From Chloroflexota bacterium (GTDB lineage Bacteria; Chloroflexota; Limnocylindria; P2-11E; CF-107), in assembly GCA_005881435.1 (NCBI GenBank), contig VBHP01000028.1, positions 71,003 to 135,002 of the forward strand: a stretch of DNA of 64,000 nucleotides, given 5' to 3'. The stretch's first letter is position 1. Every line of letters begins with the position of its first letter. Of this stretch, positions 6,303 through 60,042 are shown in pieces. The notes beneath the pieces were generated by a model that worked only from the letters and a program-made list of their open reading frames with translations, made no database searches and was not told the DNA's origin. Position numbers and translations under genes: made by a program.

Positions 6303-6379
6303 GAGTCAAAAAAGTATAACCCGACCAATTCAGTCGGAATTCCGTGCCGGCCCATTCTGGGCGGATATGGTGATCGACG

Positions 6380-6853
6380 ATGCCGGAGACCCTTGGCTTC
6401 GACCTGGTCCACTTTCTCCACGTCCTTGCCCTAGCGGCGATCGTCGGCGGAGGCTTCGCGCTCGGATCGGCGGCCGCGCCGACGCTGTTCCGGACGCTCG
6501 AGCGCCCGCAAGCCGGCACGATCTTCGGCGCGATCCTCGAGCGCTGGGACGGCGTCGCGATCCTGGCCGGGCTCGTTCTGCTCGGCACGACCGCCATCCG
6601 CTCCATCGCCTTCGAGACCGGCGAACCGCTCCTCTGGCGGTGGGCCGCCGTCGGCGTGGTGCTGATCGCGATCCTGTATTCGAGCGCGTGGGCGAATCCG
6701 ATCGCGCGAGCGCTGCGTCGTTCGCGACCCGACTTCGACGAGCTGCCGGCTTCCGCCGAGGAGCGGCGCGAGTTCGCGCGATACCACGCTCGTTCGGCTC
6801 GCGCGATGAGCGTGGCGATCCTCGCCGGACTCGTCGCGCTCTGGCTGTCATAG
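6380..6853 (+). CDS. DUF4149-like membrane protein
   Basis: Four hydrophobic helices, FLHVLALAAIVGG, APTLF, C-terminal F..YH..S. Confidence 0.7.
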   Translation: MPETLGFDLVHFLHVLALAAIVGGGFALGSAAAPTLFRTLERPQAGTIFGAILERWDGVAILAGLVLLGTTAIRSIAFETGEPLLWRWAAVGVVLIAILYSSAWANPIARALRRSRPDFDELPASAEERREFARYHARSARAMSVAILAGLVALWLS

Positions 6854-12482: not shown

Positions 12483-15400
12483 TTAGACGCGCAGCGACGC
12501 CGCCAGCGCCTCGGCGCCGATCCGCTCGGCCATCGCTCGCGCGCGGCGGAGCAGCGGCTCGACATCCTCTTTCGCGTCACGAGCGCGCATGAGTGCCAGG
12601 TCGTACAGGCCCAGCGCCTCTTCGAACGCGAGTCCAAGCTTGCCGTACTCCGTGACCGCGCGCTCCAGGCCGGCGGCATCGCGGTCACGGATCGCGACCG
12701 CGTGCATCAGCAGCGCCTGGCCACGGGCGTGCCCGCTGGCGGTGACGGCATCGTTGGCCATCTCGTACAGATGGTCATCGCGCTCGCCCCAGCGCGACAT
12801 CGCCAGCACCACCAGCGGGAGGAACAGCACGCGACGCAGGGCGTGGCGGATCCAGCGCTGGTCCGGCTCGGTGGGCAGCTCGCGCAGGTCGGCGAGATAT
12901 TGCTCGCCGTTGCGCAGGCTGTAGAAGGCCGCCAGCACGTGCGTCGCCGCGACCGCCACGGCCGGGGGCTCGAGCCGCATGCCGTGATCCCACAGCTCCT
13001 GCTCGACCGGATCGCTCATCGCCGCGGCCGCCGCCACCGCGACCGAGAGCGCGTCGCCCCCGCCCTTTCGCGGCGGCTCGGCCAGAAGGACTCTTCCGAT
13101 CCCGAGCGCGCCTTCGAAGTCCGACGCCAGGAGCCGCGCCTGCGCCTCCTCGCCGATGGCCATGATCCGCAGCGCGTCCTTTCCCGTTGCGCGAGCGAGC
13201 TCGCTGGCTTCACTCGCGTGCGCGATCGCGTCCGACGGCGAGGCCACCACGAGCTCGCATTGCGAGATCATCGTCAGGGCGTCGATCAGCTCGTCGCTGT
13301 CGCGAAGAGTCCGCGTCAACGGCACGCGTCGTTGATGCGTCCGCAAGGCGTCGGCGAACCGTCCGAGCTCGCGTTCGGCATACCCGACAGCGTCGAGGCA
13401 GAGCGACACCTCACGCAGCGCGCCGAGCGATTCGGCGATGGACAGCGCCTCGCGTGCCGTGGCCAGAGCGGACTCCCAATCCTCACGGGTGACCTCGGCC
13501 CGGCGGCGCACCGCGAACGCGCGCGCCGCCAGGAGCAGCGCGCGCTCCCGCGTCGGGTCCGGACCGCACAGGGCCAGGCCCTTCTCGATGAAGACCTCGA
13601 GATCGGGAAGCATGCCGCCCCAGCGCGTCGACGTCTCCGCGATCAAGCCGTACAGCTCGCGGACGCGCTCGCCCGCGGGATCGATCCGCTCGGCGATCGC
13701 CAGCGCCCGCTGGTACGCGATGATCGCGGCATCGAGCTCGCCGCGATAGCGCTGCACCAGTCCCACGAGCATCAGCGCCCGCAGCGCATCTTCCTCGCGA
13801 GCCTCGCGCTCGAAGAGCGACGCCGCCTGCTCGGCGTGGCGCAGCGCCTCGCCGTGCGCGTGGTTGTCGAGCGCGACGGTCGCCGCGCGCTCGGCGTACT
13901 CCGCTGCGCGGCCGGGCACTTCGCCGAGCGCGTAGTGGTGCGCCAGTGTCGGATACAGGTCGGTGAGGTCCTTGGCGTAGACCTGCTCGATGGCTTCCGC
14001 CACGCGGCGGTGCATGTCGGTGCGACGGCGCACGAGCAGCGTCTGGTACGCGACCTCCTGCGTCACGGCGTGCCGGAAGCGGTAACGACCGATCCGGCCC
14101 TGCGCCGGCCCGGCGACGACGACGAGCTCCGCGTCGACGAGCTGATCCACGGCGTCGGCAACCTCCTGCCCGGCGGCGGCGACGAGCACGCGGTATCCGA
14201 AGCGCGGTCCGATGACGGCGGCGTACTGGATGCACTCCCGCGCCAGCGGCGGCAGGCGATCGATGCGCGACGCGACGAGGGCGTGAAGGGTCGCGGGCAC
14301 GTCGAGCTGCTCCGGTTCGCGCACCAGGCGCCAGCCGTCGGACTCGGGCACGATCATCCCGGCATCGATCAACGATCGCAGCGTCTCTTCGATGAAGAAC
14401 GGATTCCCGCCGGACCGCTCGACGATGACATCGCGCAGCGCTTCGGGTACCCACTGCAGGACGGACTCGACGATGCGCGAGGCCTCCTCTGGCGAGAGCG
14501 GGTCGAGGACCAGCGAGGTGAAGTTCGCACGCGGCGCGGTTTTGCTCAGGGCATCCGGCAGGCCGCGATACGTCAGCAGCACCAGCAGTCGCGCGCGGAC
14601 GGGGTGCGCGAGCATGAACCCAAGTAGCTCGATCGTCGCCGAGTCGGCGTTGTGCAGATCCTCGAGTACGAGGACGACCGGTCGCGCCCGCGTCAGCGCC
14701 GCGTACGTGTCGCGGATCGCGGAATAGCGCCGGCGTTTCACCTCCTCGACGTCGCCCGATTCCGGCGGCGCCGGCTTCAGCCCGAGGAAGACGGCAAGCT
14801 CGTGGTGCACGATCTGGTGGTTCGGCGGCTCGAGCACGTCGACCCATTGATCCAGCCGTTCCTTGGCGTTGGCGGCGGTGCGGTCGAAGCCGAACGCTTC
14901 GAAGAGCGTCTCGATGAAACCGGCGTACGAACGAACGCCGACGCCGGAGTACGTCCACCGCAGCACCAGCGGCGTCTCGCCGCCCTCCTCTCGGGCGGTC
15001 TCCAGCAGACCCAGGAACTCGTTGACCAGGCGGCTCTTCCCGATGCCGGGCTCGCCGGAGACAGCGACGAACTCGTTGCGTCCGACCATCGCCGACTGAT
15101 ACGCCAGATCGAGACGCGAGAGCTCCATCCAGCGACCGACGAGCGGCGTGTTCAGCTGGACGCTCGGCCGCGCCACCGGGTATTCGCCGGTGAGGGCGTA
15201 GGCCAGGACCGGCTGCTCCTTTCCCTTTACCTGCACCGGTCCGATCTCGCGGAAGGAGAAGCGCTGGTTGGTCAGCCGGAAGGTCGCCTGCGTCACCAGG
15301 ATCTCGCCCGGCTGCGCCATCTGCTGCAGCCGCGCCGCGACGTTGACGGTGTCGCCGACGACGCCGTACTCCGTCGGCACCCGCACGTTGCCGGCGACGA

Positions 15401-15767
15401 CGATGCCGGTGTGGACGCCGATACGCAGCGACAAGTCCCTGCCGTAGCGCGAGCGGACGACCGCGGCGTGCTGCGCGAAGGCCTTCTGCATCGCCGTTGC
15501 GGTGCGGAGAGCGCGCTCGGGGTCGTCCTCGTGCGCGATCGGCGCGCCGAACATGACGAAGATGGCGTCGCCGATGAACTTCTCGACCGTGCCCTCATAC
15601 CGTTCGGCCTCACGCACCAGCGACTGGAAGATGTCGCTCATCAGCTCCTGCAGCTCTTCGGGATCGAGCGTCTCGGCGAGCGAGGTGAAGCCGACGATGT
15701 CGGCGAAGAGCACCGTGACGAGGCGTCGTTCCTGTACGACCTCCTGGACCGCCCTGGTGGCGTTCAT
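12483..15767 (-). CDS. Class III adenylate/guanylate cyclase + AAA ATPase + TPR
   Basis: FADIVGFT, EKFIGDA, GDTVNVAARL, GEPGIGKS, LEDLH, TPR-like C-terminus. Confidence 0.93.
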   Translation of the reverse strand: MNATRAVQEVVQERRLVTVLFADIVGFTSLAETLDPEELQELMSDIFQSLVREAERYEGTVEKFIGDAIFVMFGAPIAHEDDPERALRTATAMQKAFAQHAAVVRSRYGRDLSLRIGVHTGIVVAGNVRVPTEYGVVGDTVNVAARLQQMAQPGEILVTQATFRLTNQRFSFREIGPVQVKGKEQPVLAYALTGEYPVARPSVQLNTPLVGRWMELSRLDLAYQSAMVGRNEFVAVSGEPGIGKSRLVNEFLGLLETAREEGGETPLVLRWTYSGVGVRSYAGFIETLFEAFGFDRTAANAKERLDQWVDVLEPPNHQIVHHELAVFLGLKPAPPESGDVEEVKRRRYSAIRDTYAALTRARPVVLVLEDLHNADSATIELLGFMLAHPVRARLLVLLTYRGLPDALSKTAPRANFTSLVLDPLSPEEASRIVESVLQWVPEALRDVIVERSGGNPFFIEETLRSLIDAGMIVPESDGWRLVREPEQLDVPATLHALVASRIDRLPPLARECIQYAAVIGPRFGYRVLVAAAGQEVADAVDQLVDAELVVVAGPAQGRIGRYRFRHAVTQEVAYQTLLVRRRTDMHRRVAEAIEQVYAKDLTDLYPTLAHHYALGEVPGRAAEYAERAATVALDNHAHGEALRHAEQAASLFEREAREEDALRALMLVGLVQRYRGELDAAIIAYQRALAIAERIDPAGERVRELYGLIAETSTRWGGMLPDLEVFIEKGLALCGPDPTRERALLLAARAFAVRRRAEVTREDWESALATAREALSIAESLGALREVSLCLDAVGYAERELGRFADALRTHQRRVPLTRTLRDSDELIDALTMISQCELVVASPSDAIAHASEASELARATGKDALRIMAIGEEAQARLLASDFEGALGIGRVLLAEPPRKGGGDALSVAVAAAAAMSDPVEQELWDHGMRLEPPAVAVAATHVLAAFYSLRNGEQYLADLRELPTEPDQRWIRHALRRVLFLPLVVLAMSRWGERDDHLYEMANDAVTASGHARGQALLMHAVAIRDRDAAGLERAVTEYGKLGLAFEEALGLYDLALMRARDAKEDVEPLLRRARAMAERIGAEALAASLRV

Positions 15768-15833
15768 TCCAAATTTGAAGACGACGCGGGCTTAGCCGGA
15801 AATTTGGAATGAGCGAAGCTCATCCTGTTGTCC

Positions 15834-22648: not shown

Positions 22649-23918
22649 CGGCCTCAGGCGCGCGTCCACCGCGGCGAACAATTTCGGAGCTCGATTACGT
22701 GTCCTTCGCCGCGCCAAGGGGTTGCGGCAGCAGGACCTCGCCGGCGGCGAGTATTCCGCGGCCTACATCTCGATGCTCGAAAGCGGCAGGACCCGCGCGT
22801 CGATGAAGGCGCTCGAGCACATCTCGCGCAAGCTCGGGATCGGCGTGGCCGAGCTGCTGGGCGGTGTTCCACAGCCGAACCAGGCCGAAGCGCGTCTCGA
22901 GGTCGCGCGCACGCTCCTCGCCGCCGAAGAATCGGAGCGGGCGTTGCAGGTCCTGGCTGAGGTCCGCGACAAGGAGCTGACGCCGCGACAGCACGTGGCG
23001 CGTCTGCGGCTCGAGGGTCGCGCCCACCTGCAGCTGCGAAACGCCAAGGCCGCGATGCCGGTGCTCCAGCGTGCGCTGCTGCTGGCGCAGCAGTTGAACG
23101 ACAACGTCGAGGTTGCGCACGTGCGCAACCAGATCGGCCTGTGCTGCTACTACAACGCAGCGCATCGCGAGGCCGTGCAGCACCACCTGGCGTGTCTCGA
23201 GGCGATCCATCGTGGCGAGGTGCGCGACGCGGTCCTGGAGTTCCGCGTCCTATCGAACCTCGGCAACGAGCACGGCGCTCTGGGCGAGCTTCCCGCCGCG
23301 ATCGGCTACTACGAACGTGCGCTCGCTATGGCCAACGACGTCGTCGACCACGAGCGTCTGGCGGGGATCCATGCCGGGCTCGCGTTCGCTTACACCAAGC
23401 AGGAGGACTACGAGGGCGCGATCACCCACGCGCGCACGAGTTTCGAGCTCTACGAGCAGATCGGGGCCAAGAAGACGCTTCCCGAGATCATGAACAACCT
23501 CGCGTACCTCTACGGAAAGGTCGGCAATCGCACTCGCGCCGACGCGCTGCTGGTTCAGGCCATCGATGGCGCGCGGACCAATCGCAACCTGTACGCGTTG
23601 CCGCACCTGATCCTCAGCCGCGCCGAGCTGCACAAGACCACCGACCCGGAGCAGGCCCGCCGTTTTGGACGTGAAGCTCTCGCCGCGGCCGAGGCCGCCG
23701 AGCAGCGCGAGGCGATCCTTTCGGTGCGGCTGTTCTTGGCCGGGTTGGAGACCGATCCCACGACCGCGCGCGTCGCGTTCGATCAGTGCCTGTCGCTGGC
23801 GCGCCTCAGCGTCCCGGAGCGCGAGCGCCGCGTGCTCGAAGCGCACGCCGACTGGGAGCAGGCGCACGGCGACGTCCGCCGCGCGGCCAAGCTGTTAAAG
23901 GAAGCGCTGCACAAGTAA
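22641..23918 (+). CDS. XRE-HTH + TPR transcriptional regulator (RRNPP-like architecture)
   Basis: HTH FGARLRVLRRAKGLRQQDLA...YISMLESG followed by TPRs (SNLG..H..LG, MNNLAYLY); 8-nt overlap with the upstream gene. Confidence 0.9.
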   Translation: MPSGLRRASTAANNFGARLRVLRRAKGLRQQDLAGGEYSAAYISMLESGRTRASMKALEHISRKLGIGVAELLGGVPQPNQAEARLEVARTLLAAEESERALQVLAEVRDKELTPRQHVARLRLEGRAHLQLRNAKAAMPVLQRALLLAQQLNDNVEVAHVRNQIGLCCYYNAAHREAVQHHLACLEAIHRGEVRDAVLEFRVLSNLGNEHGALGELPAAIGYYERALAMANDVVDHERLAGIHAGLAFAYTKQEDYEGAITHARTSFELYEQIGAKKTLPEIMNNLAYLYGKVGNRTRADALLVQAIDGARTNRNLYALPHLILSRAELHKTTDPEQARRFGREALAAAEAAEQREAILSVRLFLAGLETDPTTARVAFDQCLSLARLSVPERERRVLEAHADWEQAHGDVRRAAKLLKEALHK

Positions 23919-30871: not shown

Positions 30872-31255
30872 ATGCCGAGAGAGCGAGGCCGGGACGAGTT
30901 GCCCTCGACGATCGAGCGATCGCCGGCCCATGCGCAGCACATCTGGATCAAGGCGCACGACAGCGCGATCAAGACCTATGGCGAGGGACGCCGCGCGCAC
31001 ATGGTCGCGTTCGCGGCGCTGAAACACATGTACCGCAAGGTGGAGGACCGTTGGGTGCGTAAGGCGCGACCCGGGCCGTCGGATCCGCAGGCGGCGCGTG
31101 GACCGACGACGCCGAAGAAGTCGACCGACCCGCATCGCCTACCGACGGCCGGCGGCAAGATCGCGAGGACCGTCGCCGAAGCGCGACGGAAGGCACGAGA
31201 AGCGAAACGCGAGTACGCGCGCGACTACCGCCGCCGGAAGAAGCGGGCCGCCTAG
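30872..31255 (+). CDS. chaB: ChaB-family protein
   Basis: ELPSTIERSP.HAQ..W.KAHDSA..TYGE..RAH.VAFAALKH; GGAGG RBS. Confidence 0.8.
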   Translation: MPRERGRDELPSTIERSPAHAQHIWIKAHDSAIKTYGEGRRAHMVAFAALKHMYRKVEDRWVRKARPGPSDPQAARGPTTPKKSTDPHRLPTAGGKIARTVAEARRKAREAKREYARDYRRRKKRAA

Positions 31256-32379
31256 GGTCGATACACCGCGCCAGCGATGACCGCGCGTCTCGCGCCGGTG
31301 CAACGCGGCAGCGTGTTCGGCTCGCCGCGGATCGCGAATGCGCCGAGGATCGCGAAGGCCAGAGCCTCGCGCGCTTGCGCCGGAACGCCGAGATCGTCGG
31401 AGAGCATGAGCCGCACCGCACCGAGCGACTCGCCGAGCATTCGCAACAGCGTCGGGTTTCGCGCGCCGCCGCCCGCGACGATGACCTCGTCGATCCGCGT
31501 CGCCACGAAACGTCGCAAGGCCTCGGCGATCGAGCGCGCCGCAAGTGCCGTCGCCGTTGCCACCAGATCCTCCGGCGCCAGACCGCGACCGTGGTCCATC
31601 ACGTCGTCGGCGTAGTCGGCGCCGAACATCTCGCGGCCGGTGGACTTCGGCGGCGTGCGCGCGAAGTACTCGTGCGACAGCGCGCGCTCCAAGAGCGACA
31701 CGTCGACCGTTCCCTGGGCGGCGAGCGCGCCGCCGGCGTCATACGTCTGGCGCCGCTCGGTCACGCGCGCGATGACGGCATCGATGACCATGTTGCCGGG
31801 CCCGGTATCGAAGGCGATCACGTCGTCGCGGCCGGCGTTCGCCGGCAGGACGGTGACGTTGGCGATCCCGCCGACGTTGAGGATGGCCCGCGACCGTTTG
31901 CCATCGGTGAAGACAACCCAGTCTCCGAACGGCACCAGCGGCGCACCCTCACCGCCGGCGGCCATGTCGGCGCTGCGAAAGTCGGTGACGACCGCGACAC
32001 GAAGTGCCTCCGCGACGCGCGCGGCGTCGACGAGCTGCAGCGTGGCTCGCGGACGCTCGTCCGGAAGGTGCGCCACCGTCTGCCCGTGCGTCGCGACGGC
32101 CGCGACGTCGTCGAGCGCGAGCGCGGCCTGATTCGCGCACGCCAGCGCGGCATCGGCATGCTCCTCGCCGATGCGAACACGCAGCCGCGCGATGTCCGCG
32201 GCGGTGAGACTCTCACCCTCGCCGGCGGCGAGGATCGCGCCGCGCAGCGGCGCCGGGTAGTCGCGATGCGAGTGCGCGATGAGACGGACGCGTGGTCGCG
32301 GGCGCTCGTCGCCGACCTCGACCGCGGCGGCATCGACGCCGTCCGCCGACGTGCCCGACATCAGACCGATGACGATCAC
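31252..32379 (-). CDS. anmK: Anhydro-N-acetylmuramic acid kinase
   Basis: IGLMSGTSADGVD, HGQT, DFR..D.AAGGEGAPL, NVGGIAN, FDTGPGN, PKSTGRE. Confidence 0.96.
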   Translation of the reverse strand: MIVIGLMSGTSADGVDAAAVEVGDERPRPRVRLIAHSHRDYPAPLRGAILAAGEGESLTAADIARLRVRIGEEHADAALACANQAALALDDVAAVATHGQTVAHLPDERPRATLQLVDAARVAEALRVAVVTDFRSADMAAGGEGAPLVPFGDWVVFTDGKRSRAILNVGGIANVTVLPANAGRDDVIAFDTGPGNMVIDAVIARVTERRQTYDAGGALAAQGTVDVSLLERALSHEYFARTPPKSTGREMFGADYADDVMDHGRGLAPEDLVATATALAARSIAEALRRFVATRIDEVIVAGGGARNPTLLRMLGESLGAVRLMLSDDLGVPAQAREALAFAILGAFAIRGEPNTLPRCTGARRAVIAGAVYRP

Positions 32380-32397
32380 GTCGCTCAGTCTGGACGC

Positions 32398-33153
32398 TTA
32401 GGCGGCGGCTGGCTTCCGGGCGCGGATGTAGGCGCTCGCGATCTTCTCCTCGGACTGGGGGACGCCAATCTCGCGCGTGATCTCGAACTCGATGTCGGCG
32501 AAGCCGGCCTTCTCGAGCGCCTGACGATAGTCCGCGACGGTGATCGTCCCGGAGATGCACCCGGCCCACAGATCCAGCTGGCGTTTGAGGAACGGCGAGA
32601 TCTCGTTCAGCGCGACCATGTCGGCGACGGCGAAGCGCCCGTTCGGGCGCAGGACGCGGAAGGCCTCACGCAGCACGGCGGTCTTGTCGGCTGCGAGGTT
32701 GATGACGCAATTGGAGATCACCACGTCGACAGCCGCATCGGGCAGGGGAATCTCCTCGATGGTGCCCTTCAGGAACGTGGCGTTGCCTAGCCCGCTCTTG
32801 CGCTGATTGTCACGCGACAGCGAGAGCATTTCGTCGGTCATGTCCACGCCGAACGCGTGACCGCCCGGTGACACGCGTCGTGCCGACAGGAGCACATCCA
32901 ACCCCGCGCCGCTGCCAAGATCGAGCACGGCTTCACCAGGGCGCAGGTCCGCGAGCAAGGTCGGGTTGCCGCACCCGAGGCTGGCCTTGGGGTCGAAACC
33001 CACGCTGGCCAGCTCCGCCGCGCTGTACCCGCACCCCGCGCTGTCGCTGATCTCGCCGCAGCAGTCGGAATCGCAGCAGCCGGACCCCCCGCCCGCGATG
33101 TTCAGCGCGCGTTCGGTGTACTTGTCGCGGACGGCGTCACGCAGCTCGTTCAT
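32398..33153 (-). CDS. arsM: Arsenite S-adenosylmethyltransferase
   Basis: SLGCGNP, LDLGSGAG.D, ISNCVINL, WAGCISG; Cys-rich N-terminus. Confidence 0.93.
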   Translation of the reverse strand: MNELRDAVRDKYTERALNIAGGGSGCCDSDCCGEISDSAGCGYSAAELASVGFDPKASLGCGNPTLLADLRPGEAVLDLGSGAGLDVLLSARRVSPGGHAFGVDMTDEMLSLSRDNQRKSGLGNATFLKGTIEEIPLPDAAVDVVISNCVINLAADKTAVLREAFRVLRPNGRFAVADMVALNEISPFLKRQLDLWAGCISGTITVADYRQALEKAGFADIEFEITREIGVPQSEEKIASAYIRARKPAAA

Positions 33154-33162
33154 CGCGTCTCC

Positions 33163-33258
33163 TTAGCAACAGCCATCGCAATCGTCGCCGCAGCCCTCGC
33201 AGCAGCAATCCCCGCAGCAGTCCTGGGGCACCGCGCTCGCGACCGTGTTCTCGTCCAT
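33163..33258 (-). CDS. 31-aa Cys-rich metallothionein-like peptide MDENTVASAVPQDCCGDCCCEGCGDDCDGCC
   Basis: GGAGG RBS; 9 Cys; its TAA overlaps the AAGGAG RBS of arsM. Confidence 0.85.
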   Translation of the reverse strand: MDENTVASAVPQDCCGDCCCEGCGDDCDGCC

Positions 33259-33287
33259 GACCAACCTCCCAGCAACCAATAGATGAT

Positions 33288-33332
33288 TGTCGATGGGAAA
33301 CAGTGGCGGACCCATCGACAGTTGTCAATGGG
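33288..33332. promoter_or_regulatory. ArsR/SmtB-type operator repeats
   Basis: CCCATCGACA-GT-TGTCAATGGG (33311-33332) plus another TGTCGATGGG half-site (33288-33297), between divergent genes. Confidence 0.75.
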
Positions 33333-33350
33333 TAACATAGACTGCAAGAC

Positions 33351-33695
33351 GTGGCCAAACCCAGCATCCTCCCCGAGCGCGAACGTGGCGTGTGCTGCAC
33401 CGTCGAGCTCGAGCTGCCGCAGTCCCGAGCGGACGAGGTCGTGACGGTGCTGAAGGCACTGGCCGATCCGACCCGGGTGCAGATGGTGCTCGCGCTGCGG
33501 CAAGCGTCCGAGCCAGCCTGTATCTGCGACTTCACCGCGACGTTCAAGCTCTCGCAGCCGACGGTCTCGCATCACATGAAGAAGCTACGCGACGCCGGGC
33601 TGGTCGAGGCCAGCCGCAAGGGCATCTGGACCTACTACCGCTTGCGCCCGCATCTGTCGGAACGCGTCCGCCGCATCATCGACGCCCTGGCTTAG
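33351..33695 (+). CDS. arsR: ArsR/SmtB-family repressor
   Basis: KALADPTR, ACICDF, LSQPTVSHHMKKL..AGLV; N-terminal CC; TAGACT 7 nt before the GTG. Confidence 0.92.
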   Translation: MAKPSILPERERGVCCTVELELPQSRADEVVTVLKALADPTRVQMVLALRQASEPACICDFTATFKLSQPTVSHHMKKLRDAGLVEASRKGIWTYYRLRPHLSERVRRIIDALA

Positions 33696-34381
33696 CGCGC
33701 CTTCGGCAGGACCTTCGTCTTCTTCGGATAGGGACAGAGGTCGCGCACGACGCACTCGGGACAGCGCGGTGTCGGGGTGCAGGTGCGCCGGCCGTGGAGC
33801 ACCAGGCACCACGTCGCCTTGACCCAATCCTTTTTCGGGAAGCGCGCGGCGATGGCGTCCTCGATCTTGACCGGATCGTCGGCCTTGACGAAGCCAAGCC
33901 GCTGCGCCACGCGCGCGACGTGACGGTCGACTGCGACCGAAGGCACCCCGTACGCGGCGCCGACGACGATGGAGGCGGTCTTCCGTCCGACGCCGTAGAG
34001 CTCGGTGAGACGCTCCACCTCGGGCGGCACGTCGCCGCCGAATTTCTCGAGCACGCCCTGTGACATGAGCTTCACTGCCTTGGCCTTGTTGCGAAAGAAG
34101 CCCAACGAGTGCACGTCCTTCTCCAGCTCCGCCTGCGGCGCGTTGATGTACGCGGTCGGTCCGACGTATTTCTTGAACAGGTCGACCGTGACCCGGTTCA
34201 CGCTCTCATCGGTGGCCTGGGCCGCGAGGATCGTCGCCACCAGGAGTTCGAAGGGCGTGGAGAAGCGGAGCGTCGGTCCCCAATCGGGATAGGCCTTCGC
34301 CAGGCGTCGCAGGATCGTGGCGGCGCGCCGCTTCTCTTCCGGCGCGGGCGGCTTCGCGACCGCCTTCTTCTTGGCGCTCAT
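33692..34381 (-). CDS. nth: Endonuclease III
   Basis: PFELLVATILAAQATD, HhH LYGVGRKTA, VDRHV, C-terminal 4-Cys cluster motif. Confidence 0.95.
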   Translation of the reverse strand: MSAKKKAVAKPPAPEEKRRAATILRRLAKAYPDWGPTLRFSTPFELLVATILAAQATDESVNRVTVDLFKKYVGPTAYINAPQAELEKDVHSLGFFRNKAKAVKLMSQGVLEKFGGDVPPEVERLTELYGVGRKTASIVVGAAYGVPSVAVDRHVARVAQRLGFVKADDPVKIEDAIAARFPKKDWVKATWCLVLHGRRTCTPTPRCPECVVRDLCPYPKKTKVLPKAR

Positions 34382-36412: not shown

Positions 36413-36750
36413 TCGATCTGCTGCAGCTCGCCAACGTGGTGCTGCGGCTGCTGCTCGAGTTCGGCGCGCTCGTCGCGCTGGCATACGCCGGTTATCACAG
36501 CAGCCGCAGGCGCGTCGTGCGTGGCGCGCTCGCAATACTCGCGCCGCTGATCGCCGCGGCGCTGTGGCTCACCCTCGGCGCGCCCGGCGGTGAGCGCACG
36601 CTCGACGATCCCTGGCATCTGTTGCTCGAGATCGCGATCTTCGGCGGCGCCGCCGTCGGCCTCGTCTCGACCGGGCGCGTGCGTGTGGGTGTCGCGTTCT
36701 TCCTGCTCTTCGCGCTCAACCGTGCGCTGCTGTACCTCTGGGGCCAGTGA
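36409..36750 (+). CDS. YrdB/DUF2568-like membrane protein
   Basis: LRLLLE...ALAY.G pattern with W...AP; ATGA overlap with the upstream gene. Confidence 0.75.
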   Translation: MIDLLQLANVVLRLLLEFGALVALAYAGYHSSRRRVVRGALAILAPLIAAALWLTLGAPGGERTLDDPWHLLLEIAIFGGAAVGLVSTGRVRVGVAFFLLFALNRALLYLWGQ

Positions 36751-38097
36751 TCAGGGGTCGCGTCGGGGCGTAAGCCTGCCGAAGAAGCGGACCCATCGCA
36801 CACTGCCATTTCCATCGCGGGCGAACCAGACCGGCATCTCGGCGAAGGGGCCGTTGCGCACGACCGCGCGATCGTCGTCGCTGAAGTCGAGCCGCATCCG
36901 CGGCAGCGGCTCCGGGCGCGGGCGCTGGTGGGCATCCATACCGCCACGGCGGACGGCCTCGAGCCACACGCCATCGGCGTCGCTTCCGACTGTGACCTCG
37001 TAGATCGCCGCGCGGTAGCGGCCGGCGTACTCAGCCGCACGCTCCCGAGGCACCGCGCGCCATTCTGCCGGCGCCGGGGCGGGAAGGCCGAGGTGGCCCT
37101 GAAGGACGGCCCGCGAGACCGCGCGGACGACGGGCGCGCCGCGATCCGCATTCGTCAGCACGGCGAAGGCGACGTCGCGATCCGGCACCACCGCGAGATG
37201 CGCGGTGTGGCTGACGGTGCTGCCGCCGTGGGTCAGGATGCGAACGCCGCCGACTGCGGCAACGGTCCACGCCATCGCGGCCGGACTCTTCTGCGGTGCG
37301 TACAGCGGCTCGCGCATGCGCTCGACCGCGCCCGCGGACAGCACGGGCTCGCGCCGTCCGAGGTGCAGCCGCGCGTAGGCGAGCAGCTCGCGCGCGGTGC
37401 TGACCAGCGCGCCGCCCGAGGCGAACGAGCGGAACAGACGCCACGGCCGCACGACTCGCGCGGCGCCGTCGATCACGACGTGACCGCTGGCCGCATGCGT
37501 CGCGGTCTCCCAGGCGAAGCCAGTACGTTTCATTCCGAGCGGCTCGAGCACGTGTTCTCGCGCCGCCGCGTCGAACGGCCGTCCGCGCAGCACTTCGACG
37601 ATGCGTCCGAGGATCGCATAGCCGGCGTTGCAGTACGCGCGCGTCCAGTCGAATGGCGCGACCTGCGGCGTATCCGCGAGCGCGGCGACGTATCGCGCCA
37701 GAGCGTCGTCTCCGGCGCCGGTGTCGATGAAGACGTCGCCTTCGAATCCGGCCACGTGCGCGAGGAGGTGACGCGGTGTGACCGCCCGCGCCACGGTCTC
37801 GTCGGCGAGTCGCAGCTCCGGGAGATAGGTGCGCACGGGCGCGTCGAGATCGAGTCGCCCCTCCTCGAGCAGCTGTTGCAGCAGCGTTGCCGTGAGCGTC
37901 TTGGTGACCGAGCCGCACTGGAACAGCGTGTCGACGTCGACCGGATCGCCGCGCTCGGCATCGGCGACGCCGACGCAGCGGATGATCTCGGTCTCGCCGT
38001 CGACCACCGCAATCGCGACGCCGGGAACTCCGCTCTCGCGGATTGCCTCCGGCACGGTGCGGTCGAGGCTCGCGATGAGCGCGCCGCGGTCGCGCAT
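36751..38097 (-). CDS. Beta-lactamase-like serine hydrolase with C-terminal extension
   Basis: FQCGSVTK, YCNAGY, THGGS; coupled to namZ. Confidence 0.88.
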   Translation of the reverse strand: MRDRGALIASLDRTVPEAIRESGVPGVAIAVVDGETEIIRCVGVADAERGDPVDVDTLFQCGSVTKTLTATLLQQLLEEGRLDLDAPVRTYLPELRLADETVARAVTPRHLLAHVAGFEGDVFIDTGAGDDALARYVAALADTPQVAPFDWTRAYCNAGYAILGRIVEVLRGRPFDAAAREHVLEPLGMKRTGFAWETATHAASGHVVIDGAARVVRPWRLFRSFASGGALVSTARELLAYARLHLGRREPVLSAGAVERMREPLYAPQKSPAAMAWTVAAVGGVRILTHGGSTVSHTAHLAVVPDRDVAFAVLTNADRGAPVVRAVSRAVLQGHLGLPAPAPAEWRAVPRERAAEYAGRYRAAIYEVTVGSDADGVWLEAVRRGGMDAHQRPRPEPLPRMRLDFSDDDRAVVRNGPFAEMPVWFARDGNGSVRWVRFFGRLTPRRDP

Positions 38098-39161
38098 CAG
38101 TACCGCAGGTAGTGACGGCGGATGTCCGCGAAGGTCTCGAGCGGCGCGCGCCACGACGCCACGATCTCGTCGGCGCTCCGTCCGTCATCCAGCGCGAGGC
38201 GGAGCGCGTCGGTGCCGGCGAGATGATCGAAGCGCTCGGCGTCGATCGTCAGCTCCCGGTGCGTGTCGCGGATGGCGGCGAGGAGGCGCACGCCGATGGC
38301 GACCGGCCGAAGGCGCGCACGATCGGCGATCTCGATACGTACGCCGCGGCCGGTTTCACGATCCTCGGCGCACAGCCGGATCCCATCGAGGTCGAGGCGC
38401 GACAGCCGCGCCGCATCGAGCCACGGCGCGCCGATCCACTCGAACGGCGCGCTCGTGCCGCGGCCGGGAGACACGTTCGTGGCCTCGAACAGCACCGTAC
38501 CGGCATAGAGCGCGCACGCCGGCAGCGAGCGCAATGCCGGCGACGGCGGCTCGAACGGGACGCGCGCGTCATCGAGCCACCCGCGACGCCAGCCGTCCAG
38601 GTCGACCACGGTGAGGTCGCAGGCGATCGGCAGGCAATCGACATAGAAGGAGGCAAGCTCGCCTGGCGTCATGGCGTAGCGCAACGGCACCGGTGACGCC
38701 CCGACGAACGAAGCGAAGCGTAGGTCGAGCACCGGACCGTCGGCGGGCAGATCGCCTAGCGGATCCGGACGATCAAGGACCACCACGGGGATGCCATGCG
38801 CGCCACAGGCGCGCATCACCTCGGCCAGGGTGGTGACATAGGTGAAGCAGCGCGCCGCGACGTCCTGGAGGTCATAGACCATGACCTCGATATCGGTGAG
38901 CATCTCGTCCGTCGGCCGTTGGATCGCGCCGTACAGGCTGTGCACCGGCAGACGGGTCGTGGGATCGATGCTCGACGCGATCGGCGCGCCCGCCGCGGCC
39001 GTGCCCGACAGGCCGTGCTCGGGCGAAAACAGTGCCGCGAGGTCGTGCGCCGAGAGGAAGGCTCCGATCGTGGCGCGACCGCTGTGGTTGGTCACGAGGC
39101 CGACGCGCTTACCGGCAAAGAGGTCGGCGCGCTCGGCGATGCGGTCTCGGCCGAGGCGCAT
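38097..39161 (-). CDS. namZ: Exo-beta-N-acetylmuramidase (DUF1343)
   Basis: VGLVTNHSG, FSPEHG, HSLYG, DLQDV, LDRP.P, PSP.L, GRGT..PFE.IGAPW. Confidence 0.92.
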   Translation of the reverse strand: MRLGRDRIAERADLFAGKRVGLVTNHSGRATIGAFLSAHDLAALFSPEHGLSGTAAAGAPIASSIDPTTRLPVHSLYGAIQRPTDEMLTDIEVMVYDLQDVAARCFTYVTTLAEVMRACGAHGIPVVVLDRPDPLGDLPADGPVLDLRFASFVGASPVPLRYAMTPGELASFYVDCLPIACDLTVVDLDGWRRGWLDDARVPFEPPSPALRSLPACALYAGTVLFEATNVSPGRGTSAPFEWIGAPWLDAARLSRLDLDGIRLCAEDRETGRGVRIEIADRARLRPVAIGVRLLAAIRDTHRELTIDAERFDHLAGTDALRLALDDGRSADEIVASWRAPLETFADIRRHYLRY

Positions 39162-39913
39162 CAGAGCTGGGCGAAGGTGATGAGCTCGAACCGTTCCTTC
39201 GCCGCTGACATGACGTCGGGCGACGTCAATGTCGCGAGCTCTGCGGGACGCTCGCGGGCGTATGACGACGTCAGCAAGGCGTCGTCGATTTCGGCGGGGT
39301 GGCACATCAGCTCACTCGTGCCTTCGGCGATACGGCCGAAGAGCGCGAGCAGCGATTTCGGCGTGACGGCTTCGGTGCCGTAGAAGTCGCGGACGAACTG
39401 ATCCGGGGTGCGCAGGCCGCTCTTGCGCAAGGCCTCGCGCTGCGCCCGTGACTGGTTGCGCACCGGCATGCCGCGCTCCTTGGCCACGGTGGTGAAGGCC
39501 CAGAGCACCTCGGGCTCGTCCTGCACGAAATGGTGCGTGTCCAGATGCGTCGGTGTGCGCTTGAGGAGCTTTGTGACGCGGTCGATCTGACGGCGGAACT
39601 CGGCCAGAACCTCCTCGCCGCGCAGCTTGCCGCGAACGAGATGCGGACGGGGAGGGAACGAACCGTCCTCACGCACCAGCGAGGGGACCGCGCCCACCGG
39701 CGACAGTGGCTTCCCGTACGTGAGCACCAGGTGCACGCCGACGCCGAGGCGCTTCTGATCCCGCACCAGCGCGGCAGCGTCCTCAGCCGCCTCGGCATTC
39801 GCCATCAGCGTCGTGCTGGTGACGATGCCGTCGCGGTGCGCTCGTAGCACGCCGCGGTTCACGCCGCGAGAGCGGCCGAGATCGTCGGCGTTGACGATCA
39901 GGCGCCGGCTCAT
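39161..39913 (-). CDS. ChbG/YdjC-family carbohydrate deacetylase
   Basis: LIVNADDLG, GVHL, PTHLDTHH, ELMCHP. Confidence 0.9.
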   Translation of the reverse strand: MSRRLIVNADDLGRSRGVNRGVLRAHRDGIVTSTTLMANAEAAEDAAALVRDQKRLGVGVHLVLTYGKPLSPVGAVPSLVREDGSFPPRPHLVRGKLRGEEVLAEFRRQIDRVTKLLKRTPTHLDTHHFVQDEPEVLWAFTTVAKERGMPVRNQSRAQREALRKSGLRTPDQFVRDFYGTEAVTPKSLLALFGRIAEGTSELMCHPAEIDDALLTSSYARERPAELATLTSPDVMSAAKERFELITFAQL

Positions 39914-55520: not shown

Positions 55521-55577
55521 TGCCCGCGGAGCCATGCATAGCCTGTGCCGCCCACGGCGCGATCGATAATCGCCGCG

Positions 55578-57347
55578 ATGGACGTCGCGCTGCGCGAGGC
55601 GAAGGCGCTGGAGCGGGGCATCGCCTTTGGCCGCTGGGGCGGTGTCGCTCTGGCGTTGGTCCTGGGACCGATCTTCCCGAACCTCTCGCTCCCCGCCGTG
55701 GTCGTGCTCGGGATCGGCATCGCGGCGTACAACGTCTGGGTCATGCGCGCGTCGTCGCGCGCGCTAACGCTCGCCGAGCATCGCCGCATCGAACGCCTGA
55801 CCTTCATGGCCGACCTCACGGCGCTCGCTGTGGGCATGCTGCTCTTCTCGCCGGACCCCTACTGGACCACGTTCCTCATCGTCCCGGTGGTCATCATGGC
55901 CGGCGCGTTCCGTTTCGGGAACGAGGGCGCCCTGGCGTCGAGCGTAGTGCTCGGGGTCTCGTATCTCGGGATCAGCGTGTTCCGCGCCATCGCTTTCGGT
56001 TACGGCATCGAACCGGAGCGTGTGCTGTTCCACCTCTCCGTTTTCGCCCTGACCGCCTTCATGGTCGAGCGCATCCTGCGCGAGGGGCGAGGCGTGCGCG
56101 CCGAGCGCGAGCGGCTGATCGGCGAGCTGCAACGCCGCATCGCCGAAGACGACGCTTTGGTCGAGGTCGGCCGCATCGTGGGCAGGCTCCGCGACCCAGC
56201 CGAGGTCGTTCCGGCCGTGCTCGAGGCCAGCCGGAAGGTCTTCCGCTTCGAACGCGCGACCGTGTTCACGATCGACGAGCATCGCGGCGAATACCGCGCC
56301 ATCTACCGCCTGACACCGTCCGGCGAGCCCCCCGGCGCGGCGCCGGCATTCGCGATCGGCGAGGGCCTCGTGGCCGCGGCGCTGGCGGAGGACCGGCCGC
56401 TGCTCGTGCGCGACGTGCTGAGCGATCCGCGCTACGTGCCGCGGCACATGCGCGAGCGCCGCCGCTCCGTGATCCTGGTGCCGCTCCGTGTCGCCGGACG
56501 TCCGGTCGCAGTGCTGTCGCTCTCGCGCGGGCTGCCGGACGAGTTCGGGCCGGAGGACCTTCGTCAGGCCGAGATCGTCGCCGCTTACGTCGCGCAGGTC
56601 CTGGAGAACGAGCGGCTCTTCGCCGAGGCGAGCCAGGCCGAGGCGCTGCGAGCCGCGGACCGCATGAAGGACGAGTTCCTCGCGACCGTGAGCCATGAGC
56701 TGCGCACGCCGCTCGCGGTCGTGCGTGGCGCCCTCGAGCTGCTGCAACGAGGTGTGGCGGCGCGCGAGCAGCTATTCGACCAAGCCACGCGCAATCTGGA
56801 GCGATTGAGCCACAGCGTCCAGGACCTGATCGATCTGGCGCAGCTGCGCGAGGCGCGCGTCGAGCTCGAGCGGGAGTACACCTCCGCGCGCGACCTGCTT
56901 GAAGAGACCTCGCGCGCGCACCAGCTCCTGGCGACGCAGCGCGGCCAGAGTCTGATCGTCGAAGGACGGGCGGATCTGCCGCCCGCATACGTCGATCGCG
57001 CGCGTATGCTTCAGGTCCTCGGAAACGTGGTTGCCAACGCCATTCACTACGGCCCGCTGGACGCGCCGATCACACTGTTCTGCGAGCATGTCGACGATGA
57101 GCTTCGCTTCCGCATCGTGGACCGCGGACCCGGCGTGTCCGTCGACGAGCGCGACCGCATCTTCGAACGCTTCTACCGCGCCGAGGCCACGCGCGACACC
57201 GTCTCAGGCACCGGGCTCGGGCTCGCCATCGCGCGCCGCCTCATCGAGCTGCATGGCGGCCGGATCTGGTTCGAGGACGCCGAGCCCGGGAGCGCGTTCG
57301 TGATCGCCGTGCCTCTGGACACGACCAACGCCGAGGCCGCGTCATGA
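55578..57347 (+). CDS. Membrane sensor histidine kinase with GAF domain
   Basis: TM region, GAF, VSHELRTPL, QVLGNVVANA, DRGPG, GTGLGLAI. Confidence 0.95.
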   Translation: MDVALREAKALERGIAFGRWGGVALALVLGPIFPNLSLPAVVVLGIGIAAYNVWVMRASSRALTLAEHRRIERLTFMADLTALAVGMLLFSPDPYWTTFLIVPVVIMAGAFRFGNEGALASSVVLGVSYLGISVFRAIAFGYGIEPERVLFHLSVFALTAFMVERILREGRGVRAERERLIGELQRRIAEDDALVEVGRIVGRLRDPAEVVPAVLEASRKVFRFERATVFTIDEHRGEYRAIYRLTPSGEPPGAAPAFAIGEGLVAAALAEDRPLLVRDVLSDPRYVPRHMRERRRSVILVPLRVAGRPVAVLSLSRGLPDEFGPEDLRQAEIVAAYVAQVLENERLFAEASQAEALRAADRMKDEFLATVSHELRTPLAVVRGALELLQRGVAAREQLFDQATRNLERLSHSVQDLIDLAQLREARVELEREYTSARDLLEETSRAHQLLATQRGQSLIVEGRADLPPAYVDRARMLQVLGNVVANAIHYGPLDAPITLFCEHVDDELRFRIVDRGPGVSVDERDRIFERFYRAEATRDTVSGTGLGLAIARRLIELHGGRIWFEDAEPGSAFVIAVPLDTTNAEAAS

Positions 57348-58042
57348 CGCGGATCCTGGTCATCGACGACGAGCCCGACGTGACCTCGCTCGTCGCAGTC
57401 GCGCTCGAGCACGACGACGGCAAGAAGGTCGTGTCCCAGTGCAACGACGCCGCCAGCGCGATCGGCCGCATCGCCGCCGACGCGCCCGACGTGGTCATTC
57501 TCGACATCGCCATGCCGCGGCTGGAAGGGTTCGCGATCCTCGAGGAGCTCCGGCGCGAGGGGAATCAGGTACCGGTGATCCTGCTGACCGCCAAGGGCCT
57601 GGAGCAGGACAAGGTGCGGGGCCTGGAGCTGGGCGCGGACGACTACGTCACCAAGCCGTTCAGCACCAAGGAGCTCGCCGCGCGCGTGGAAGCGGTGCTC
57701 CGGCGCTACCGCGCCTCGGACCGCGCCTCTCGCTCCAAGGTCTTCGAGCACGACGGACTACGCGTCGACTTCGCCACCCGCGACGTCACCGTCGACGGTC
57801 AGCCCATCCGGCTCACGCCGACCGAGTACGAGCTGCTCGCGCACCTGGTGTCCAATCGCGATCGCGTGCTCGAGCACCGGGCCCTGCTGGCGAAGGTCTG
57901 GGGGCCGGAGTACGCCGACGAGGTGCACTACCTGAAGGTGTACATCGGGCGCCTGCGCGCAAAGCTCGAAGGCGACCAGCAGCGGCCGCGGTACATCGAG
58001 ACCGTGCGCGGCGTCGGCTACCGCTTCCCCGCGTCGCACTAG
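57344..58042 (+). CDS. OmpR/KdpE-type response regulator
   Basis: IDDE, LDIAMP, TAK, KPF, LTPTEYELL, ETVRGVGYRF. Confidence 0.95.
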   Translation: MTRILVIDDEPDVTSLVAVALEHDDGKKVVSQCNDAASAIGRIAADAPDVVILDIAMPRLEGFAILEELRREGNQVPVILLTAKGLEQDKVRGLELGADDYVTKPFSTKELAARVEAVLRRYRASDRASRSKVFEHDGLRVDFATRDVTVDGQPIRLTPTEYELLAHLVSNRDRVLEHRALLAKVWGPEYADEVHYLKVYIGRLRAKLEGDQQRPRYIETVRGVGYRFPASH

Positions 58043-59928: not shown

Positions 59929-60042
59929 AGCCGAGCAAGCAAGCGCGCGTTTACTTCGACTCAGTACGGATGTACTAGAGGGAATCGGCCCGGTTTCACC
60001 ATTCCCAGATGCGGCCTCCGCGGCGTTCACTGTGCTGAACAG

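Follow-up and report, generated by a model that had tools for sequence, protein, structure and literature searches.

A cysteine-rich mini-ORF between arsR and arsM in a Limnocylindria genome: a candidate As(III)-binding partner of the arsenite methyltransferase

Introduction

Arsenic methylation by soil bacteria governs the mobility of arsenic, its volatilisation, and its entry into crops. The arsenite S-adenosylmethionine methyltransferase ArsM is usually regarded as a stand-alone enzyme that is supplied by glutathione conjugates. Its preferred substrate is As(GS)3, As(III) is loaded onto the enzyme via three thiol transfers, and the Cys-Cys disulfides formed during turnover are reduced by thioredoxin (PMC6138428). 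According to a paper from 2025, no gene for intracellular sequestration is known in ars operons (PMC12093948). Here, we describe a small open reading frame (ORF) that directly precedes arsM in a 64,000-nucleotide (nt) stretch of contig VBHP01000028.1 from a Chloroflexota bacterium; this whole stretch is hereafter referred to as the window. The mini-ORF (33258..33163, minus strand; 31 codons plus TAA) encodes MDENTVASAVPQDCCGDCCCEGCGDDCDGCC. On balance, and with modest confidence, we propose that it is the translated first cistron of an arsenite-inducible bicistron, and that its product serves ArsM as an As(III)-binding partner or donor.

Several described systems resemble this arrangement in part. 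ArsD is an ars-operon chaperone in which vicinal cysteine pairs (Cys12/Cys13/Cys18) pass As(III) to ArsA by ligand exchange. It is a protein of ~120 amino acids (aa) with a thioredoxin-like fold that serves the ArsA ATPase, whereas the mini-ORF peptide has 31 aa and its partner would be a methyltransferase; the peptide matched no Pfam or NCBIfam model, and there is no arsA among the 43 genes of the window. The C-terminal Cys-Cys arm of MerA and the NmerA and MerP modules acquire a thiophilic toxic element and pass it to buried catalytic cysteines. Here the likeness would be conceptual, namely a flexible Cys module that is either detachable or fused, with a different element, enzyme, and fold, and no sequence relation.

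The metallothioneins SmtA/BmtA and MymT (about 53–56 aa) are likewise small, Cys-rich, and free of aromatic residues, and are subject to ArsR/SmtB-type metal regulation. The mini-ORF peptide agrees with the broad compositional definition of a metallothionein (low mass, very high Cys content, no aromatics), but it is shorter (31 aa), lacks His, has its Cys mostly in CC and CCC runs and not in CxC and CxxC motifs, and is partnered with arsM. An initial annotation of this DNA, made from the sequence alone, had seen no resemblance to the SmtA type; accordingly, no Pfam family (Metallothio_Pro included), NCBIfam metallothionein model, or PDB entry was matched. The radical-SAM (S-adenosylmethionine) enzyme ArsL of arsinothricin synthesis (NF040542) offers a further parallel, being an arsenic-transforming SAM enzyme with a short C-terminal Cys-rich segment that includes a vicinal pair (bioRxiv 10.1101/2024.02.01.577332). 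This RCCLKC tail binds As(III), as demonstrated by truncation, and is needed for product formation (bioRxiv 10.1101/2024.02.01.577332). It differs from the mini-ORF in motif and enzyme family, is never free-standing, contains just three Cys, and is basic where the mini-ORF peptide is acidic. By analogy, the closest functional parallels to the mini-ORF peptide would be ArsD, the MerA arm, and the ArsL tail, and the peptide would be a detached counterpart of the Cys-pair tails that are fused to some ArsM proteins (see below). The general type, a module or chaperone that binds metal(loid)s through abundant thiols, is already known; what is new is the gene family, most of which lacks annotation.

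The mini-ORF and its translation signals

All nine cysteines of the 31-aa peptide (29% of its residues) lie within the final 18 positions; eight residues are Asp or Glu, and Lys, Arg, His, Phe, Tyr, and Trp are absent. The frame runs from ATG to TAA, with cysteine encoded by TGC and, once, by TGT. A Shine–Dalgarno (SD) sequence, GGGAGG (33270..33265, minus), is located 6 nt 5′ of the ATG. At the 3′ end, within the junction at 33159..33165 (minus), the TAA (33165..33163) overlaps the SD of arsM, AAGGAG (33164..33159), which is followed by a 5-nt spacer and the arsM ATG (33153). Judged from this overlap of stop codon and SD, the mini-ORF is translationally coupled to arsM. The initial annotation had described a 31-aa peptide with nine Cys in its last 18 residues, a ribosome-binding site, a stop codon over that of arsM, operator repeats, and a divergent arsR. 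All of these are present, with the ORF on the minus strand, and its claim of a gene-like ORF inside an ArsR-controlled arsM transcription unit agrees with the SD, start codon, operators, and coupling that are seen in the sequence.

The cysteine density of the mini-ORF (9 Cys per 19 aa) is the highest over all six frames of the window. The runner-up independent segments have 6 Cys per 19 aa and are Arg/Ser/Trp-rich out-of-frame artefacts, and six-frame translation of 0.79 Mb of related loci never gave more than 7 Cys per 19 aa. The GC content of the mini-ORF by codon position is 0.58/0.58/0.87; the value at third positions (GC3) is like that of arsM, arsR, anmK, and nth (0.86–0.89), whereas the remaining intergenic DNA beside the mini-ORF has 50% GC. 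Two other Cys-dense frames of the window, at 36413–36550 and 22981–23097, were rejected as Arg/Ser/Trp-rich out-of-frame artefacts without start signals.

Other origins and roles for this DNA were considered and set aside. A recent copy of the N-terminal Cys loop of arsM (SGCCDSDCCGE) was rejected, given that 69 of 500 codon-shuffled controls reached the DNA local-alignment score. An RNA element was also rejected: the fold of the mini-ORF transcript was not unusual against shuffles (z = +0.73), no terminator-like site was found from 32200 to 33800, and no Rfam family reached its gathering score over the whole window. The idea of a precursor of a ribosomally synthesized and post-translationally modified peptide is unsupported, as there are no modification enzymes nearby and the neighbouring methyltransferase is a bona fide ArsM.

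Conservation beside closely related arsM genes

Relatives of the mini-ORF were reached via DNA fetched around ArsM homologues, not via searches with the peptide. ArsM scans of genome and metagenome collections gave nothing closer than 73% identity, and closer relatives came from a protein search and contig look-ups. The resulting syntenic set comprises the contigs of ArsM homologues that are 73–99% identical to the window ArsM. As far as each contig reaches, these share the gene order beta-lactamase, nth, and arsR, followed by the divergently oriented arsM, anmK, and a murQ-like SIS gene, and the nearest relatives of the window locus belong to soil Chloroflexota and Candidatus Limnocylindria metagenome-assembled genomes (MAGs). 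The initial annotation had held that a lack of conservation would speak against its proposal; instead, a mini-ORF occupies the same slot between arsR and arsM, upstream of the latter, in seven of the eight distinct syntenic lineages.

The encoded peptide is identical to MDENTVASAVPQDCCGDCCCEGCGDDCDGCC in L164, where ArsM is 99% identical to that of the window. It reads MDQNRVSDALSEECCADGCCCEACTPPDDCCGC in L161/162 (Chloroflexi bacterium 13_1_40CM_4_68_4; ArsM 90%), MYIGDERTTDDAPPQDACGPCCDECCCDEACADAPCC in L170 (80%), MYLGDDRDEERVAEATAANEAFCPCDECCDCCGDASNEQVCC in L165 (79%), MYEHETREQDCCGDDCDCCACG in L166–169 (78%), MLDEYVSPDPSAAQPDWCDCCETCCPPEACALLDETRRCDG in L171–173 (74%), and VRDECCCPDCCGESDDCCPAVTK in L174 (73%). 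The remaining lineage, L163 (2413–2501; ArsM 84%), has both operator boxes and no mini-ORF; the SD and GTG start codon of its arsM follow directly after box 2, and the gap between arsR and arsM is 87 nt.

The orthologues are 22–42 aa long, with 6–9 in-frame Cys codons (0–1 in the other frames), 6–12 Asp/Glu, and 0–2 Lys/Arg. Aromatic residues are missing from the Cys-rich part in most of them; an N-terminal Tyr occurs in several, and a single Trp in L171. All orthologues, like the CCP ORFs described below, are preceded by a GGAGG-type site at a distance of 5–7 nt from the start codon. Their stop codons either precede the arsM ATG by 10–16 nt or share an ATGA overlap with it. When L161 is compared with the window, DNA identity is 68% for the mini-ORF, 85% for arsM, 88% for arsR, and 76% for the operator region, while the mini-ORF keeps its start, its nine Cys, and its frame, with a net length change of 6 nt. 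As judged from these comparisons, the mini-ORF is fast-evolving, and is conserved in composition but not in sequence, as metallothioneins are. The peptides are too short and too low in complexity for significant alignment, so that orthology is supported by synteny instead.

Searches with the peptide itself are in keeping with this. The exact product is absent from 153 billion gene calls and from a collection of 15 billion proteins. It had no match to Pfam families (hmmscan, E ≤ 1 and E ≤ 10), NCBIfam families, or PDB sequences (phmmer, E ≤ 10), and a version extended to 50 aa found no match in a word-indexed search of 5.8 billion clusters. The ORF had been called unannotated, and with no exact product on record and with Pfam, NCBIfam, and PDB all empty, that description is confirmed. 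Database homologues are lacking because gene callers miss such ORFs; only the 41- and 42-aa versions among the orthologues are stored in protein databases, labelled ‘hypothetical protein’. The mini-ORF also illustrates clearly how a gene family can be conserved and yet escape standard gene callers.

CCP mini-ORFs and fused ArsM tails

A further 160 loci were fetched around more distant ArsM proteins, bringing the survey to 174 loci. In 11 of these there is a mini-ORF of a second type (CCP), with the consensus M(N/S..)EPCCP(A/E)PCCPxP(D/E)CCPPxxxPCC and a length of 19–28 aa (e.g., MNEPCCPAPCCPAPDCCPPDEAPCC), each with its own AAAGGAGG or TGGAGG site. Three CCP ORFs lie between arsR and arsM, as in the window (L021, L105, and L120). 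Seven lie directly 3′ of arsM, with an ATGA stop/start overlap (L010, 2064–2141; L089, 3244–3327; L090, 769–846; L091, 3229–3306; L093, 3247–3306; L094, 1332–1409; and L129, 610–693). The SD of these downstream ORFs (AAAGGAGG) is within the final codons of arsM; such an ORF looks like a C-terminal tail of ArsM that has been split into its own cistron, or like the precursor of a fused tail. The downstream CCP mini-ORFs are unannotated and were not found in protein databases. In a Limnocylindria MAG (L003, 2482–2559, minus), a CCP ORF with a GTG start and the SD AAAAGGAGG, encoding VSEPCCPEPCCPSADCCPPVDEPCC, follows the divergent arsR, and therefore the module has moved within the ars locus. Between the CCP ORFs of L010 and L094, there are seven synonymous codon changes and one non-synonymous, and eight of nine differences are at position 3; this bias to third positions indicates purifying selection on the protein. 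Intermediates between the window type and the CCP type occur in L171 (..CDCCETCCPPEAC..) and L174 (..CCCPDCCGESDDCCP..).

In 16 ArsM proteins from other phyla (Acidobacteriota, Gemmatimonadota, Burkholderiales, and other MAGs), the protein itself ends in a fused Cys tail with 2–6 Cys, mostly as pairs, such as ..RSCCGPTCCS, ..ACCGDGCCA (L050), ..EPCCDPSCCS, ..EGCCTGSDGLPCCV, and ..AESCC. These tails extend past the end of the curated NF008823 model, and literature searches found no description of them. They share with the mini-ORF the CC-x(2-3)-CC spacing, the acidic, Gly, and Pro spacers, often a terminal CC, and ArsM as the partner; DCCGDCCC of the window peptide resembles ACCGDGCCA of the L050 tail. 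The tails differ in being covalently attached and in having 2–6 Cys, whereas the window peptide is free-standing, is encoded upstream, and has nine. A fused tail and a mini-ORF never occur together in one of the surveyed loci. The match of the window ArsM to NF008823 is shorter (to position 246 of 272). A lost tail was rejected as the reason, since in tail-bearing ArsM proteins the tail itself lies beyond the model; what is shorter in the window ArsM is the C-terminal subdomain.

On the basis of these loci, we define an arsM-linked family of Cys-pair mini-ORFs. Its members are ORFs of ~19–42 aa with their own GGAGG-type SD, located beside arsM or arsR on an arsenic-regulated transcript; they have at least 6 Cys, mostly as CC runs 1–4 residues apart, with acidic, Gly, or Pro spacers and few basic residues, and Cys at or near the C-terminus. 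The window ORF, its syntenic orthologues, and the CCP loci all agree with this definition in position and composition. A six-frame motif scan of ~0.8 Mb of loci (CC-x1-4-CC, at least 6 Cys, few Arg/Trp) gave 21 matches outside arsM, 19 of which adjoin arsM or arsR.

Certain ArsM relatives without a mini-ORF (P0043, P0068, P0075, P0097, and P0034) often have an expanded, repetitive N-terminal loop rich in Cys, Gly, and acidic residues (e.g., SCCDESCGEGSCGEGSCGEG; SSCCESGGSCCGGGSCGDGRSCGEG), and P0034 additionally ends in ..AESCC. A Cys-rich module thus seems, from the sequences, to vary in whether it sits within ArsM or apart from it. In L073 (Gemmatimonadaceae), where ArsM has the fused ..EGCCTGSDGLPCCV tail, there is a second Cys-rich frame (STGCDGCCGGCSCCDSACDG...) at 6320–6481 (plus), ~3.4 kb 3′ of the arsM start.

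The ArsR-controlled transcription unit

The methyltransferase gene arsM (33153..32398, minus) encodes a protein of 251 aa that matches NCBIfam NF008823 with 294.8 bits (cut-off 263). Against CmArsM (PDB 4kw7; E = 9e-26), the cysteines of the GCG, ISNCV, and GC(I/L)xG motifs align, such that the equivalents of CmArsM Cys72, Cys174, and Cys224 are kept. The protein has an N-terminal CC..CC loop, and its C-terminus (..IRARKPAAA) has no Cys tail.

The divergent arsR (33351..33695, plus) encodes an ArsR/SmtB regulator of 114 aa (PF01022 and NF033788) with an N-terminal Cys15–Cys16 pair and with Cys57 and Cys59 in helix 3. In the PDB, it is matched best by 6j0e, ‘Arsenic responsive repressor ArsR’ (CgArsR), with the Cys-Cys of which Cys15–Cys16 aligns (ECCT/VCCT); the CmtR and SmtB-like models of NCBIfam were weaker matches. 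The 92-nt spacer between arsR and the mini-ORF carries a palindrome and a second, related box. Box 1 (33310..33333), the inverted repeat ACCCATCGACA-GT-TGTCAATGGGT, is a putative ArsR site. Box 2 (33279..33297; minus-strand CCCATCGACAATCATCTAT), also an inverted repeat, lies between the putative −10 element and the SD of the mini-ORF. The box 1 core ATTGACA..GTC.AT is invariant, and C.TCGA.(N5)TC.AT of box 2 is conserved, in all nine aligned loci, whether the mini-ORF is of the window type, of the CCP type, or absent.

Box 1 holds both the −35 element TTGACA (minus, 33328..33323) for the mini-ORF and arsM and the −35 element TCGACA (plus, 33315–33320) for arsR; therefore, one repressor site would cover both −35 elements. 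The putative −10 element for the mini-ORF and arsM is CACTGT (33305..33300), read by eye from the alignment, in which its A2 and T6 are conserved, with a 17-nt spacer. For arsR, a promoter scan gave the promoter-like site TCGACA-17-TAGACT (33315–33343, plus), which leaves 8 nt, without an SD, up to the GTG start codon; the arsR mRNA therefore probably has little or no leader. The 3′ end of arsR overlaps the stop codon of the convergent nth by 4 nt (33692–33695).

Proposed function

From the organisation of the locus, we infer that the mini-ORF is translated and arsenite-induced, and that its product binds As(III) and hands it to ArsM. In this mechanism, an ArsR-repressed, arsenite-induced transcript would carry the mini-ORF followed by arsM, with translation of the two coupled. 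The product would be an acidic, probably unstructured thiol peptide with nine cysteines, mostly in vicinal pairs. It would bind As(III) with three thiolates per arsenic, and therefore up to three arsenic atoms per peptide. Thiol exchange would then move As(III) from the peptide onto the catalytic cysteines of the enzyme, a donor role that would parallel those of As(GS)3 for characterised ArsM proteins and of the RCCLKC tail for ArsL. The peptide may also buffer free As(III), or trivalent methylarsenic (MAs(III)), at a locus that has no efflux pump.

The mini-ORF appears to belong to a set of fast-evolving, previously undescribed Cys-pair modules that travel with ArsM, either as a free peptide encoded upstream of arsM, downstream of it, or after arsR, or as a fused C-terminal tail. 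The existence of such fusions speaks for a role of the module that is tied to the enzyme, and less for bulk sequestration. The initial annotation had proposed either a minimal arsenic metallothionein or an As(III) chaperone for ArsM. The link to ArsM is strengthened by the Cys-pair modules that also occur 3′ of arsM and fused to ArsM; as between metallothionein and chaperone, the two are not separable in silico.

A number of observations weigh against an As(III)-binding partner of ArsM. In L163 the mini-ORF is absent, which implies that ArsM as such does not need it. The majority of surveyed arsM loci likewise have no mini-ORF (e.g., L001 and L002), and it would therefore be an accessory module. 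The non-Cys positions of the mini-ORF change faster than the operator DNA, which would fit a constraint on composition only; weak constraint would look alike. A phmmer search of 1.84 billion representative sequences with the peptide gave no match, and a profile of 11 family members, run against 5.8 billion clusters, recovered only its own 42-aa member (E = 0.23), the sequences being short and of low complexity. With no statistically detectable homologue, members are assigned to the family by where they lie, what they are composed of, and how their cysteines are arranged, and not by significant alignment. That window-type and CCP-type ORFs are homologous is plausible, but unproven for sequences of such low complexity. 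Finally, no published function for the fused ArsM tails was found in literature searches.

A broader proposal can be made, which we regard as possible but hold only tentatively. Soil Chloroflexota (Candidatus Limnocylindria and their relatives) may encode a dedicated, arsenite-inducible thiol carrier, a ribosomally made stand-in for glutathione or phytochelatin that would feed As(III) to ArsM and possibly hold MAs(III); the module would be swappable between positions upstream of arsM, downstream of it, behind arsR, and fused to the enzyme. If true, a thiol carrier of this kind would explain the Cys-pair tails of many ArsM proteins, and would represent the first part of any ars operon devoted to sequestration or donation, as well as the first chaperone to serve an arsenic methyltransferase. 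More generally, if the mini-ORF product is a thiol mini-protein coupled to ArsM, it would add a missing part to the methylation pathway, for substrate capture or buffering, and would give a function to the Cys-pair tails that many ArsM proteins carry. For biosensing or bioremediation, it would also supply a natural tag of very small size that binds As(III). L163 and its relatives constitute a natural presence/absence pair for the mini-ORF.

Alternative explanations

It is conceivable, but rather unlikely, that the module relays electrons instead of arsenic, a role that the initial annotation had not raised. Its Cys pairs would then work as a mobile shuttle, switching between dithiol and disulfide, that reverses the disulfides formed in the catalytic cascade of ArsM and is itself reduced by thioredoxin; the mini-ORF peptide would be the trans version of the fused tail. 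The 6–9 cysteines far exceed the needs of a shuttle, and vicinal Cys-Cys disulfides are strained. The disulfides of ArsM turnover do need reduction by thioredoxin, but characterised ArsM proteins run on thioredoxin or glutathione alone (PMC6138428). A C-terminal Cys pair is employed in this way by class I ribonucleotide reductase (PMC4078304); in 16 loci the Cys-pair module is a flexible C-terminal tail of ArsM itself, and, as read from the loci, the module would always be co-expressed with ArsM. Nevertheless, the sole arsenic-enzyme Cys tail that has been tested experimentally, that of ArsL, binds substrate and does not relay electrons (bioRxiv 10.1101/2024.02.01.577332). We also consider it unlikely, more so than a redox role, that the mini-ORF is a regulatory upstream ORF, a leader rich in Cys codons that tunes arsM by coupling, or that senses depletion of Cys-tRNA or thiols, or As(III) on the nascent chain, with the released peptide having no job of its own. 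Such a leader would account for the upstream position, for the overlap, seen at every window-type locus, of the stop codon with the SD or start of arsM, and for non-Cys sequence that is poorly conserved, as in many leader peptides. However, there is neither an alternative RNA structure nor a terminator-like site (see above), arsM carries its own strong AAGGAG, and acidic composition is conserved besides Cys. Furthermore, CCP ORFs 3′ of arsM or after arsR, and segments fused to the C-terminus of ArsM, are forms that cannot act as leaders.

We assign a similarly low likelihood to a general soft-metal metallothionein whose main task is to buffer Cu(I), Cd(II), or Zn(II) and which stands beside arsM only since ArsR/SmtB regulators govern both kinds of gene. 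The peptide has the composition for this (29% Cys, no aromatics), and ArsR/SmtB regulators include sensors of Zn, Cd, and Cu. Against this, arsM and arsR are the only constant partners across at least 20 loci, the module is fused to ArsM in other phyla, and no SmtA or metallothionein model was matched; moreover, among solved structures the regulator is closest to the As(III) sensor CgArsR, and the Cys-Cys sites of the two align. Least likely of all, and in our view very improbable, is that the mini-ORF is not a functional gene, but a chance frame or TGC-rich simple sequence in a GC-rich 5′ untranslated region. The ORF contains internal, imperfect direct repeats of 12–15 nt, it is missing from one lineage (L163), and DNA of 68.5% GC, the GC content of the window, has few stop codons. 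Yet the SD, start codon, frame, Cys count, and coupling to arsM persist where the DNA of the ORF is only ~68% identical, and GC3 is 0.87 beside non-coding DNA of 50% GC. The Cys density is likewise unmatched in the six frames of the 64-kb window and of 0.8 Mb of related loci, and substitutions in the CCP family are biased to third codon positions.

Genomic neighbourhood

On the same strand as arsM, anmK (31252..32379, minus) starts 18 nt 3′ of the arsM stop codon, and this order is kept in all of the L161–L174 contigs that reach past arsM. anmK may be co-transcribed with arsM, but is no part of the arsenic function. Given the 18-nt gap, the lack of a terminator-like site, and the conserved order, arsenite might also de-repress anmK and murQ by read-through. 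A Pfam scan of the 43 predicted genes of the window found no acr3, arsB, arsC, arsA, arsD, or arsH. The neighbourhood is instead one of peptidoglycan and N-acetylmuramic acid recycling, with NamZ (38097–39311), AnmK, a MurQ-like SIS protein, GH3, a Mur ligase, Opp components, and beta-lactamase-like genes. No tRNA or tmRNA was found in the window by ARAGORN. The window is rich in signalling genes, with an adenylate cyclase/AAA/TPR gene (12483–15791), a GAF histidine kinase with a response regulator (55542–58042), and a GGDEF-EAL gene (59929–61692).

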